From Flaccisagitta enflata (taxonomy: Eukaryota): a DNA stretch of 64,000 nucleotides. The stretch covers positions 48,856,001 to 48,920,000 of the forward strand of contig OZ231126.1 of the NCBI GenBank assembly GCA_965153355.1, in the 5' to 3' direction. Shown in pieces: positions 44,526-53,536 of the stretch. How positions within the stretch are numbered: position 1 is the stretch's first letter; each line of letters starts with the position of its first letter. The notes below the pieces were generated by a model. It was not told the origin of the DNA. It ran no database searches and was given only the letters and a program-made list of their open reading frames with translations. The position numbers and the translations under genes are program-made.

Positions 44526-47500
44526 ATGGCTCTGGCTTGTCAGAGAGACAGTTACTTGAAGGAGCTAAGAAGCCGTGTCAAGTCCATAAACAAATGCAGC
44601 ATGAAAATTTCCAAGAAGGAAAAGTTGGAAGGATTTGAAATCTCGCTTGATGATACGATTCTCTTTCCGGAGGGAGGAGGTCAACCGGATGACCGGGGAA
44701 CTATCGATGGGTTTCAAGTAACAAGGTTACTGCAAATGTATAACATACTGGCTCATGTGTTCAAAAATTGACAAAGGAAAATAGCAGACAGGCTCGTTTT
44801 CCCACTTTTCGACTCGTGTCCACGGACGCACCGACGGACCAACGGACGGACAAAGCCTTTGATACTATCTAGCTCATAAATATATCAACATCTGGAAAGA
44901 AGCTTTAACTTTGGAAGAATGCTGCTTCTCAACGAAAAAAGCTGCAATTACCAGGTGGGTCCCATTTGAAAGAGTTGTTCAAATTCTTTCAAATGCGACC
45001 AATCTGGGGTCTGTAGTTCAATCTGTTTAGGAGCAGTATTTTTCCAAAGTTGATGCTTTTTCCCAGATGTTGATATTATTATGAGCTAGATAGTAGAGAT
45101 GCGTTTCCGCAACTACAAATGTGGCCACAATACCCACGAGCCGCTATCACGTCTCCTCATCCCAACGACCGACTCAGCGACATCCTTTCTTTTCCTTGAC
45201 ATAAGGGTTCGTCGGGAGGGTGCTGAGGCAATCCATTTCGTTCCAGCGTTATCTTTACCATTTGAAATCGGGTCAGAAGTCCAACTGGTGGTCGATTGGG
45301 AGCGCCGATTTGACCACATGACGCAGCACTCGGGACAACATCTCATCACCGCTGTCGCAGATAAATCCTTGGGGGCGCCGACTACCTCGTGGAATTTAGG
45401 TAAGAATCTCCCTGCTTTTAACCATGGACGTGATGATATAAACCGTTGTCGCATTGGAGGTGGTGTACTAATGACTACTAATGGCATGTCGACTGAATGG
45501 ACACAGATAGTCGGCCTATCTTTACGCAACGTTAAAAACCAAACAGGAGAGAAGATCTCTACCATCGAATTAGACACGCCTTCTCTGTCAGCGGACCAAA
45601 TGCAACAGCTGGAGAATGAAGTCAATGAGAAAATTCGAGCTGGACTGCCTGTTTACCCGACCCTTTATCCCAGTAAAGAGGCCCTTGAAACGAAGGTAGG
45701 GGGGAGGGGAAGGAGAGATTCTAGAACAACACAATGACCGTAAACAACACGCATCATTCATTATTGCGCGTAATATGCATATTTACCATTTTAATTGCTA
45801 GCCTTTTTTCTGTTCTGGTGATTACACAGGAGAATGAGGGATTTAGGCAAGCTGCAAGAGGGCTTCCAGACGATCATACGGGGCCGCTAAGGGTTGTAAC
45901 TATTTCAGGTGAGATTTGGTCACAATAATTTGGGCTGCAATCAACCATTTTGCATCTAATTGTGAATTTGAGATATGGCGTATGAATTATTATCCATGGT
46001 ATGGAATTCTTGATTCTGTTAGTATGTGTATGCGACTAAGTCTGTATGCGTGTGTATTTTCAGGCGTAGAAAACAACATGTGCTGCGGTACCCACGTTGC
46101 CAACACTAGTCATCTTCAGGCCATAAAACTTCTTGGAAGCGAGAAAGGGAAAAAAGGAAAAACTAACTTATTGTTCGTTGCCGCGGGACGTCTTCTCAAA
46201 TACCTCCATGGCTGTTTGGAGAACGAAAAAGCGCTTACAGGTCACTTCCTTTTTTACTCATTCTCTCCATGTAAGTAAGGTTTCTAGACAACTACAAAAC
46301 ACGGGACTAACATGTTTACCCCTTGTAACTGTAGGCTTGTTGAAGGGTGGTCCAGAATCTCATGTTGACCTGGTCGATAAACTGCAAAAGAACTTCAAAA
46401 ACAACTCCAAAGCCTTAACCAATGTGTCGCGGGAAATGGCTAGCAAAGAGGTAAAAGACTAAAATGACTAATTATATATCATCAGACACTCTGCTTTGAA
46501 TTGTCTGGTAAGAGCGCTCAAAGGCAGTGGAACGATACAAGAGGAACAAAAGTTAACATTGATCTGACCATGTCAGATTTCAACCAGTTCCTTCAAGCCA
46601 TCAATCATCATCCTTCAAACAGGTTGAAAATGTAATCGCCAACCCACCCGAATCAGGATTTTTGTCATATCATACTAAAGGAGACAACGAGTGCATGAAC
46701 ATCATCGTTAACGGATTGGAATCTATTCCCATTGTGGTGAGTTCAGTCCCAACACCAAGATCGAGAAATTTCCTCTTTTATCCATACTTCAGCCTAAAGT
46801 TTAAACCAGACGATTAAATCGTCACGAACATCTGATAAATTCATGAAGTCCCGATTTAGGTGTTCTTGACGAATGGCGACGAGATGAAAGAAGGTAATTT
46901 CGTTCTCTCCTTCCCCGAATCGTCTCCCGGTCACGAAGAGCGTGGTGAAATTGCTAGCCAAATCATGAAACTCCTTGATGCCAAGGGCTTCGGCAAAAAT
47001 AACCGGTGGCAAGTAAGATTTGCTGGAGCACGTTAAACGAACAACCTTAACTTACCATGAGTGCAATTTTCGGCAGTATAGGTCTACCCGTTTAAATGAT
47101 GTAATCATAACGTTCTGAGTGTGATTTGATGATTTCGCCAATATTGCTGCTCTCAGGGCAAAGTGATGAAGATGGGAAACCGCGATGCAGCCGAGTCCCT
47201 GATTTCTACATGGGCAGCAAAACACTTGGTCATAAAAGGCGATGTGATTGAACAGATACATGTGCCGGCATCAACAGAAGAAGTAATAAACGAAGACTAC
47301 CCACCTCTTACATTATTCACTTACCCAGACAACCCAAGGGCGTTTAAAGGTAAGCGTCGTCAGGGGAACATGACACAGGACTGTCTTGGTCAAGCTGTTT
47401 GAAGTCGGTATGGACTTTTTGGCAATGGCCAATTTCACTCGCAGGACTCGTGTGACTGACCAACAAACCGATAAACGGTTAGAATTACATCGCTTTTATA

Positions 47501-53500: not shown

Positions 53501-53536
53501 GTCATTGGCGGCCACAAATCTTTGGCTAAATTTTAG
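44526..53536 (+). CDS. AARSD1: Alanyl-tRNA editing protein AARSD1 (AlaX) fused at its C-terminus to an EF1-gamma-type GST domain, 655 aa, 12 exons
   Basis: Exons 44526-44725, 45206-45399, 45547-45695, 45830-45908, 46064-46240, 46335-46450, 46623-46736, 46860-47012, 47157-47349, 52270-52476, 53017-53179 and 53314-53536 (1968 nt, all phases compatible). AlaX part: ACQRDSY, DTILFPEGGGQPDD, DWERRFDHMTQHSGQHL (HxxxH), NMCCGTH (CxxxH). GST part: TLFTYPDNPRAFKGLICARY, FLAKFPSGKVPALE, ESNAIADYL, QWIQF, LDDHLLLNTYLV, NLKRWFKTIANQ. Confidence 0.9.
44865..45093. mobile_element. 229-bp foldback MITE with TA duplication, inserted into a HINE copy
   Basis: TA|CTATCTAGCTCATA ... TATGAGCTAGATAG|TA; the flanks GGACAAAGCCTTTGA and GAGATGCGTTTCCGCAACTA rejoin into the family B 5' module. 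Confidence 0.85.
47704..48466. mobile_element. 763-bp MITE with ~170-bp TIRs and TA duplication
   Basis: TA|CCCTGCTTTCAATATCGAGTGTTACCAGCA ... TGCTGGTAACACTCGATATTGAAAGCAGGG|TA. Confidence 0.85.
48924..49115. repeat. (GA)n-(CA)n compound microsatellite
   Basis: Read directly. Confidence 0.95.
51169..52126. mobile_element. Non-autonomous Transib-like element, 958 bp, 5-bp TSD CGATG
   Basis: CGATG|CACTAAGGGC ... GCCCACAGTG|CGATG, with 42-bp imperfect TIRs (30/42 identical, ungapped). It splits a HINE copy (51018-51168 / 52127-52172). Confidence 0.75.

Follow-up and report, generated by a model that had tools for sequence, protein, structure and literature searches.

The question raised by this locus is why a gene for a tRNA trans-editing factor should run on, without interruption, into a glutathione S-transferase (GST) domain. 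The gene lies in 64,000 nt of Flaccisagitta enflata DNA (GenBank assembly GCA_965153355.1, contig OZ231126.1, positions 48,856,001 to 48,920,000 of the forward strand), referred to here as the window, and it joins AARSD1, an AlaX-type enzyme by which serine mis-attached to tRNA is removed, to a GST-like domain resembling that of the translation factor subunit eEF1B-gamma (EF1-gamma). AARSD1-GST is almost certainly a real gene fusion, and it is transcribed as one message. The best explanation, to which we attach a rough probability of 0.55, is that of a conserved, expressed fusion in which the GST module docks the deacylase in a translation assembly.

The AARSD1-GST gene comprises 12 exons on the + strand between 44526 and 53536, with an ATG at 44526 and a TAG at 53534-53536. 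Splicing of the exons by coordinate yields a coding sequence of 1968 nt and a protein of 655 amino acids (aa) with 0 internal stops, and all introns are of the GT..AG type. The junction lies within exon 9, where a single open frame carries the C-terminus of AARSD1 and continues through a linker lacking both Met and stop into TLFTYPDNPRAFK, which forms the first GST strand (T446-K458, nt 47310-47349). The read-through stop of this frame, at 47400-47402, closes an open reading frame spanning 47133-47402. Junction phases across the exons of the GST part are 1, 1 and 2. An earlier reading made from the letters alone (the sequence-only reading) had placed the locus at 44526-53536, an exon at 47157-47349, a read-through stop at 47402 and the stop of the fusion at 53536, had described the frame of that exon as continuing through the linker into GST with no stop and no Met, and had added three further phase-compatible GST exons. 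All of these coordinates hold, and the continuous frame and the additional exons are borne out in the genomic DNA. The features of the gene are listed below, with joints taken from contigs of three marine metatranscriptome runs (X1, X2 and X5).

44437 to 44525, + strand: 5' untranslated region (UTR), minimum extent; an X2 contig begins at 44437 and continues via exon 1 into exon 2.
44526 to 44725, + strand: exon 1, start codon and AARSD1 N-terminus; GT..AG joint 44725|45206 in X1, X2 and X5.
45206 to 45399, + strand: exon 2, zinc-binding histidine motif (residues 104-112, nt 45315-45341, the nucleotides placed by hand).
45547 to 45695, + strand: exon 3; downstream joint in X1 and X2 contigs.
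45830 to 45908, + strand: exon 4; spliced model and contig joints.
46064 to 46240, + strand: exon 5, tRNA_SAD; it contains the zinc motif CxxxH at residues 214-218 (nt 46081-46095).
46335 to 46450, + strand: exon 6, connecting helices; contig joints, and the transcript-derived protein P0001 begins within this exon.
46623 to 46736, + strand: exon 7; spliced model and contig joints.
46860 to 47012, + strand: exon 8, C-Ala-like part with the Gly-rich motif at its end; spliced model and contig joints.
47157 to 47349, + strand: exon 9, the fusion exon, with the end of AARSD1 (to about residue 420), the linker (about 421-445) and the first GST strand.
47350 to 52269, + strand: intron 9, 4920 nt, the largest intron; GT..AG skip in X1, X2 and X5 contigs.
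52270 to 52476, + strand: exon 10, GST N-terminal (thioredoxin-like) subdomain; GST profile positions 16-85.
53017 to 53179, + strand: exon 11, start of the GST helical subdomain; profile positions 82-136 and contig joints.
53314 to 53536, + strand: exon 12, GST C-terminal subdomain and TAG stop; profile positions 138-204.
53537 to 53710, + strand: 3' UTR, minimum extent; an X5 contig reaches 53710.

A search for sequencing runs listed five marine metatranscriptome runs, each with 13-18% of the sampled words (approximately the exonic share), plus one raw-read run. Four of these six were aligned to the window: X1, X2 and X5 as contigs, originating from two studies, and X6 as raw reads. The fusion joint 47349|52270, a GT..AG joint skipping 4920 nt, was represented by a single contig in each of X1, X2 and X5, at depths of 4.8, 10.4 and 8.2, with shorter sides of 34, 191 and 191 nt, respectively. 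It is crossed by an X2 contig of 1492 nt, placed from 46058 to 53545, and by an X5 contig of 1129 nt, placed from 46859 to 53710. The contig table also has the ten other exon joints with the exception of exon 2|3, for which an X1 contig provides the bridge. Entry into intron 9 from exon 9 was seen in no listed contig of the aligned metatranscriptome runs; contigs can lose rare isoforms, and a minor transcript stopping at 47400-47402 may still exist.

Proteins predicted from other assemblies gave the same structure. A query with exon 9 against the longer catalogue proteins returned one match among 21 candidates, P0001, which matches the exon at 100% identity. This 387-aa protein, derived from a contig of 1307 nt, covers exon 6 to the stop codon (exons 6-12) and must therefore come from spliced RNA. 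Its 90% cluster includes P0231, a protein of 655 aa from a 2290-nt contig, identical to the genomic model at 649 of 655 positions; the six differences indicate that P0231 comes from another individual or assembly. The sequence-only reading had claimed a fusion and had called for RNA spanning 47349>52270. That joint was found in three of the four aligned runs and in both studies, and together with the separately assembled P0231 the spliced contigs bear the claim out.

The contigs do not in themselves establish a single RNA molecule, and with rare isoforms dropped during assembly it might be argued that separate AARSD1 and GST genes have been merged by read-through or by chimeric contigs. Such an artefact is extremely improbable. 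The junction falls within one genomic exon in a continuous frame, the GST part has no Met, the joint recurs in three runs of two studies alongside separately assembled catalogue proteins from three collections, and the fusion architecture is repeated in a second species at 71-81% identity.

This second species is represented by two cluster mates with the parts in the same order, P0002 of 459 aa and P0232 of 673 aa, the latter from a 2180-nt contig. Between P0231 and P0232 the AARSD1 core is identical at 336 of 415 positions and the GST part at 150 of 211; the linker is identical at 12 of 29, with 16 gap columns in addition. In these two sequences the linker has drifted and both domains are held. 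The GST part contains no Met in either species, so that it can have no in-frame AUG start of its own. Three short proteins (P0091, P0183 and P0209) from unspliced contigs of the second species or a near relative, 81-94% identical to P0002, leave the reading frame, as read by eye, where the exon 9, 8 and 5 donors lie in the window, respectively, from which it follows that the fusion exon and intron positions are common to both. A 125-aa fragment, P0102, has 60% identity and stops short of the junction; it may represent a third species.

These comparisons bear on a simpler account of the fusion, namely that the stop codon and the intergenic DNA between AARSD1 and a duplicated 5' part of an EF1-gamma gene were lost and that the GST is a neutral or decaying tail without a role. 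The freely varying linker, with its 16-column difference in length, would be expected of such a tail, as would the loss of several residues conserved in EF1-gamma (listed below). Decay is nevertheless improbable, given that the GST part remains 150/211 identical between species whose linkers are 12/29 identical. It also retains 43 of 50 EF1-gamma consensus columns in P0231 and 42 of 50 in P0232, where consensus columns are those at least 85% conserved in 120 full-length EF1-gamma. Neither species has a stop or frameshift in the GST part, its three spliced introns are kept, and in predictions of complexes the GST monomer is modelled as folded, with a predicted local distance difference test (pLDDT) value of 90.

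Residues 1 to 410-423 of P0231 are collinear by BLASTP with nearly the full length of 12 named unfused AARSD1 proteins, at 48-54% identity; these were taken from a nemertean, an annelid, a brachiopod, a mollusc, an echinoderm, amphioxus and vertebrates. The 118 unfused relatives listed in the search with P0231 (below) end at approximately 390-555 aa without a GST; the fusion protein runs 235 residues further. Among solved structures, the relatives of the AARSD1 half are an AlaX-like protein (3KEW, E 8.7e-32), AlaX-M (2E1B, 8.5e-17) and the editing domains of AlaRS. Pfam places tRNA_SAD (PF07973) on exon 5 at 36.4 bits against a cut-off of 24, and tRNA-synt_2c on exon 1 at an E-value of 3.2e-5, which is below its cut-off. 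Both zinc motifs, HxxxH and CxxxH as defined in PMC11260482 (cited, like the other papers below, from excerpts), are present, with P0231 having histidines 104/108/112 and CCGTH at 214-218, and P0232 carrying the motifs at 104 and 216. In a reference set of 111 unfused AARSD1, mostly from fishes, 178 columns are at least 90% conserved, of which 149 are kept in the fusion. Within the Gly-rich motif of the C-Ala-like end, G386, G388, K389, G395 and K396 are retained. In a quick tree the AARSD1 half groups with spiralian sequences (a 21-row group with a Shimodaira-Hasegawa approximate likelihood-ratio test value of 93, not starred). The N-terminal 420 residues or so are, on sequence grounds, a complete AlaX-L-type AARSD1 editing protein and a predicted deacylase. 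Two substitutions, Q106T in the region of the histidine motif (exon 2) and G248A (exon 5), occur in both fusion species where the 111 unfused AARSD1 show no variation.

Like human AlaX/AARSD1, the fusion has a tRNA_SAD domain, connecting helices, the two zinc motifs and a C-Ala-like end; the Gly-rich motif in the latter departs from the AARSD1 consensus at three positions. A known variant, PTGES3L-AARSD1, also combines AlaX with a non-catalytic addition. In that protein the added domain sits at the N-terminus and has a different fold, the p23-like fold of PTGES3L, while in AARSD1-GST it is C-terminal and GST-like. The activity of mouse AlaX is under the control of its N-terminal fused protein, according to the excerpted text of PMC11260482.

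The origin of the GST half was traced through solved structures, profiles and a tree, and claims at the level of the fold rest on sequence matches to solved chains. Residues 446-651 align with human EF1-gamma's GST-like domain (5DQS/5JPO) at an E-value of 1.8e-48 with a single one-residue gap. The 5DQS alignment spans chain positions 7-211, and the protein stops four residues past the GST match. The next GST matches among solved structures were at 1e-11 or weaker, and none of the 13 PDB sequences at E <=1e-5 was a multisynthetase GST-like chain. Pfam assigns GST_N to exon 10 (E 3.2e-9, 37.4 bits, cut-off 20.9) and GST_C to exon 12 (E 8.8e-6, 26.3 bits, cut-off 20.7); on P0001 the same families score 40.5 and 35.5 bits against these cut-offs. 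Membership of the Arc1p/AIMP type is not indicated, Arc1p_N_like reaching 21.3 bits against a Pfam cut-off of 27. When 11 EF1-gamma sequences were combined into a GST profile for this analysis, its positions 4-17, 16-85, 82-136 and 138-204 fell successively on exons 9, 10, 11 and 12; the domain E-values were 8e-3, 8.7e-20, 1.1e-11 and 2.6e-21, a match far beyond chance.

A second profile, made for the C-terminal domain of EF1-gamma, found nothing in six frames of the 64-kb window (best E 0.37), and Pfam did not place PF00647, the EF1G C-terminal domain, on P0001. The protein is thus not an EF1-gamma, only a carrier of its N-terminal GST module. It shares with eEF1B-gamma a GST-like domain homologous along the whole length and differs in that the GST stands at the C-terminus of another enzyme and not at the N-terminus, in lacking PF00647 and in six departures from the consensus.

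A careful tree was built from 46 GST regions, with three long rows flagged by a quick tree omitted. The two fusion sequences pair at 100/100 and lie inside a starred 27-row clade (97/88) that includes the named EF1-gamma of cephalopods and insects and is separate from the algal row; the position of the GST half beside insect EF1-gamma is weak (90/75). The sister of the fusion pair is the GST of P0233, a HisRS-GST protein (97/92, starred). Rare shared residues were tried as additional support for this sister relation and rejected: P0233 shares four of them, and 9 of 120 EF1-gamma controls share at least four, with a maximum of six. Alignments made with MAFFT from mixed AARSD1 and GST-only rows were also discarded, as the GST rows were misplaced (10-18% identity to the query).

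Taken together, these data argue that the GST part is very probably of EF1-gamma origin. The sequence-only reading had identified the domain as an EF1-gamma-type GST lacking the EF1G C-terminal domain and had proposed a tree of the GST part; the identification agrees with the 5DQS/5JPO match and the nesting of the fusion pair within the animal EF1-gamma clade, and the missing domain with the six-frame scan of the window. The three spliced introns in the GST module, which fall after K458, K527 and L581, show that it is not a retrocopy. In the simplest history, the 5' part of EEF1G would have been duplicated at the DNA level beside AARSD1, and the stop codon then lost.

A GST domain could also be present for catalysis or redox sensing, with glutathione binding coupling editing to redox state or detoxification. 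The fusion keeps GKVPAL, with its cis-Pro context, and the motif ESNAIA, both of which we take to be GST G-site elements. The same motifs are kept in ordinary EF1-gamma, a protein with an established structural role, and the fusion is no different from its parent in this respect; an enzymatic or sensory GST is therefore highly improbable, even more so than a decaying tail. The GST part is probably a protein-protein interaction module of some kind rather than an enzyme.

If it is such a module, the surfaces of its parent indicate what it might bind. In 5DQS the loop K147-E155 and the helix N186-N196 touch eEF1B-alpha (PMC9458455, as excerpted). These contact elements were mapped by hand onto exon 12, an offset of 2 fitting the named end residues:

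nt 53333 to 53359, + strand: residues 589-597, equivalent of the eEF1B-alpha contact loop, from the 5DQS alignment and the excerpt of PMC9458455.
nt 53450 to 53482, + strand: residues 628-638, equivalent of the eEF1B-alpha contact helix, from the same two sources.

In this hand mapping the helix equivalent keeps six of 11 human residues (N, R, W, F, T and N). With the loop, considered below, the parental surfaces appear to be kept in part and changed in part, a pattern compatible with retained binding and also with a new partner.

Docking by a GST-like domain and the residence of an editing factor in a complex both have precedents among translation proteins. In function, the nearest analogue is the deuterostome ValRS of the ValRS-EF1 complex, which likewise carries a GST on a translation enzyme and whose GST-like domain is described as indispensable for docking to EF1B-beta (PMC4394549, excerpt). 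The two are likened by function; in ValRS the GST is N-terminal and on a synthetase rather than an editing factor. The GST-like domains of the multisynthetase scaffolds (Arc1p/MCP1, p18, p38, MetRS and GluProRS) also assemble translation enzymes and belong to other subfamilies. According to the excerpt of PMC12021450, Arc1p/MCP1 has both a GST-like domain and tRNA deacylase activity, and the multisynthetase complex of T. brucei contains the trans-editing factor MCP3. The latter is a free-standing editing protein that belongs to a complex, as is proposed for AARSD1-GST, and differs from it in belonging to the INS/YbaK superfamily, not AlaX, and in having no fused GST itself.

Excerpts of PMC11260482 describe human AlaX as a cytoplasmic enzyme that dimerises via helices situated between the editing domain and C-Ala. 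Its specificity is strict for Ser and relaxed for tRNA; it hydrolyses Ser-tRNA(Ser) as well, attacks this correctly charged tRNA upon overexpression and did not co-precipitate with AlaRS. Confining an enzyme of this kind to a particular site would be reasonable. In the proposed mechanism the GST module would anchor a promiscuous Ser-tRNA deacylase within a translation assembly. Docking could be onto eEF1B, via the surfaces by which eEF1B-gamma holds eEF1B-alpha and eEF1B-beta/delta, in the way that the EF1-gamma-like GST domain docks deuterostome ValRS, and the deacylase would then be positioned at the transfer of aminoacyl-tRNA to eEF1A. As the specific partner of the GST, eEF1B is tentatively put forward as the single most likely address. 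The sequence-only reading had likewise proposed a tether to the elongation-factor or synthetase complexes, and that proposal stays a conjecture.

A different use of the same domain forms the main rival: pairing of GST with GST by the canonical GST dimer face, producing either a tighter AlaX homodimer or a heterodimer with eEF1B-gamma, with GST proteins of the multisynthetase complex or with a GST-tagged synthetase, for instance HisRS-GST. Two copies of residues 445-655 were predicted to form a homodimer with a score of 0.58, against 0.36 for the best of three controls, a margin (+0.22) that barely meets the mark. The runs agree in at least 97% of contacts with a partner pLDDT of at least 89, and the supplied alignment was not used in the prediction. 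Of the proteins solved as one-chain pairs, 21 of 30 came up to this mark, and of those solved as single chains, 0 of 23; the eukaryotic counts were 17 of 29 pairs (7 of 16 for animals), one of the seven pairs that lack an older solved relative, and 0 of 30 single chains. Solved structures contain many GST dimers, so that a pass may reflect memorisation and speak for likeness more than for binding. The predicted interface (495-496, 504-520, 531-547 and 580-587) is the canonical GST dimer face and lies apart from the eEF1B-alpha equivalents at 589-597 and 628-638.

Pairing of this kind has an analogue in the GST-like domains of Arc1p and MetRS, which pair in canonical GST-dimer geometry (PMC4394549), and the N-domain of eEF1B-gamma is said in the excerpt of PMC9458455 to have a tendency to oligomerise at high concentration. 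The sister position of the HisRS-GST module also favours this reading, though the rare shared residues add nothing to it. The helices by which human AlaX already dimerises make a second dimer contact not obviously needed. GST-GST pairing is considered possible but unlikely.

Docking in a translation assembly is preferred here, and several results weigh against it. The homodimer prediction fits GST-GST pairing equally well. Six departures, A462C, P558H, G596Q, L601N/T, A602C and R623L, are shared by both fusion species at EF1-gamma columns at least 85% conserved; the contact-loop equivalent keeps four of nine human residues, and G596Q falls inside it, so the parental EF1-gamma interface may have been altered. 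The stem of the fusion pair is long, at 1.0 changes per column, pointing to fast divergence after duplication. On the editing side, the C-Ala Gly-rich motif departs from positions 93-99% conserved in unfused AARSD1 at G384A, A387F and G391N/R, which makes full deacylase activity uncertain; the conserved motif is required for editing in human AlaX (PMC11260482). Finally, run X6 (raw reads of poly-A RNA from another labelled organism, with about 6/100 of the run read) contained no read from any exon and matched a repeat only. Its 312 reads are all partial fits with depth in two of 30 bins, the repeat-bearing 49155-49471 and a trace in 52008-52324, and X6 is accordingly uninformative about the gene.

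Were docking to be correct, its most specific form would make AlaX a resident GST-docked subunit of eEF1B (heavy EF-1), or a member of a lineage-specific GST assembly with GST-tagged synthetases such as HisRS; the EF1-gamma-type GST would then be a second, repeatedly acquired address tag, independent of the multisynthetase complex. This version is doubtful as it stands. It would imply that Ser-mischarged tRNAs are proofread upon hand-over to eEF1A. An editing factor that is free-standing has to compete with eEF1A for mischarged tRNAs, and the fusion would offer a natural test of whether an editor placed beside the eEF1A exchange complex improves fidelity or limits collateral deacylation.

The distribution of the fusion was examined in three protein searches. 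With P0001 as query, 78 of 2253 candidates passed; the AARSD1 part was covered only by P0001 and P0002, the other 76 being GST only. With P0231, 709 of 8000 scored proteins passed, and the best 120 listed consisted of the two fusion clusters and 118 tRNA_SAD proteins without GST, among which a few of 543-555 aa are N-terminally extended and named PTGES3L. A fused relative would outscore unfused ones. With P0002 against representative proteins, no match to both halves was found among the best 150 of 1947. Two separate stretches were matched in four of these rows, of which Pfam shows two to be double GSTs, and the remaining two measure only 220 and 255 aa. This search recovered only fragments of the query's own full-length family (P0231/P0232), so little weight attaches to its silence on other fusions. 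The literature yielded no account of an AlaX/AARSD1-GST fusion, supplementary files lying outside the search. The sequence-only reading had known of no description of the architecture. This stands in so far as no named protein among the listed matches has it and no paper was found, and requires qualification in that unnamed proteins (P0001, P0002, P0231 and P0232) are already present in public metatranscriptome collections. AARSD1-GST is a new domain architecture for a trans-editing factor, while GST-like docking modules on translation proteins are already well known.

EF1-gamma-type GSTs were encountered on other carriers. A HisRS with a C-terminal GST of this type is represented by P0233/P0079/P0234 and by P0123, a second, distinct fragment; P0233 has 804 aa with an N-terminal stretch that is WHEP-like by eye, and its nearest ESM Atlas clusters are arthropod HisRS without GST (score 0.87). 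In P0135/P0235, a 301-aa protein, the end of the AlaRS C-terminal (DHHA1) domain is joined to an EF1-gamma-type GST, and an ESM Atlas cluster of 50 eukaryotic AlaRS members, about 1194 aa long, has GST_C in 84% of them (score 0.77). All ESM Atlas hits scored <0.9 and are leads only. HisRS-GST and AlaRS-GST resemble AARSD1-GST in having the module at the C-terminus of a translation protein and differ in the carrier enzyme, and their source organisms may be unrelated to that of the window. Together with these fusions, AARSD1-GST points to the EF1-gamma GST module as an assembly tag that is portable and has recurred, which, if true, would widen the known modes of organising translation enzymes into complexes; if AlaRS and AlaX both carry the tag in one organism, GST pairing could join them. 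The same type of GST follows a SerRS core in P0134 (Nowakowskiella sp. seryl-tRNA synthetase, KAJ1555185.1), an ARD dioxygenase domain in P0167 and an NPL4 domain in P0170, the last of which keeps the EF1G C-terminal domain. Gene models may have been merged in some of these three.

Intron 9 exceeds the other introns 9- to 52-fold in length and is densely filled with repeats, comprising a microsatellite, copies resembling short interspersed elements (SINEs) and inverted repeats. Rfam gave no match between 44000 and 54500 at E <=0.01 and ARAGORN no tRNA in the whole window, so there is no recognisable small RNA in this large intron. The microsatellite is the following:

48917 to 49161: GA/CA microsatellite in intron 9.

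Copies of a short repeat family (D2, D3) occupy 44797-44851 in intron 1 and 49171-49285 and 51029-51135 in intron 9, with a further copy by eye at 52100-52190. Metatranscriptome contigs of three runs pile onto these copies with summed depths of hundreds to thousands, jumping between copies, and the raw reads of X6, an unrelated run, match only a core of approximately 34 nt at 49268-49301. These features suggest a SINE-like family, abundant and transcribed, whose core is conserved. Inverted repeats are found in intron 9 (47670-47825 / 48345-48500, 156-nt arms, 80% complementary, 519 nt apart) and in intron 1 (44863-44976 / 44982-45095, 114-nt arms, 78% complementary, 5 nt apart, a near-perfect hairpin); both pairs are probably insertions resembling miniature inverted-repeat transposable elements.

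Directly upstream of the gene lies a low-complexity, pyrimidine-rich tract on the + strand (about 41830-44080, approximately 2.2 kb), and the bin 42001-44000 has a GC content of 0.238, a GC skew of -0.80 and an AT skew of -0.98. CT/CA microsatellites follow at 44140-44340. None of the neighbouring domains is related to translation factors. Upstream open frames encode a RING finger (1562-2497), the N-terminal part of malonyl-CoA decarboxylase (29362-29748) and THUMP (33648-34442), and an 889-aa open frame on the - strand at 19642-22308 has no Pfam family. Downstream, exons on the - strand at 56008-56586, 57577-58017, 60720-61061 and 63364-63765 encode GH18 chitinase and peritrophin-A (CBM_14) chitin-binding proteins.

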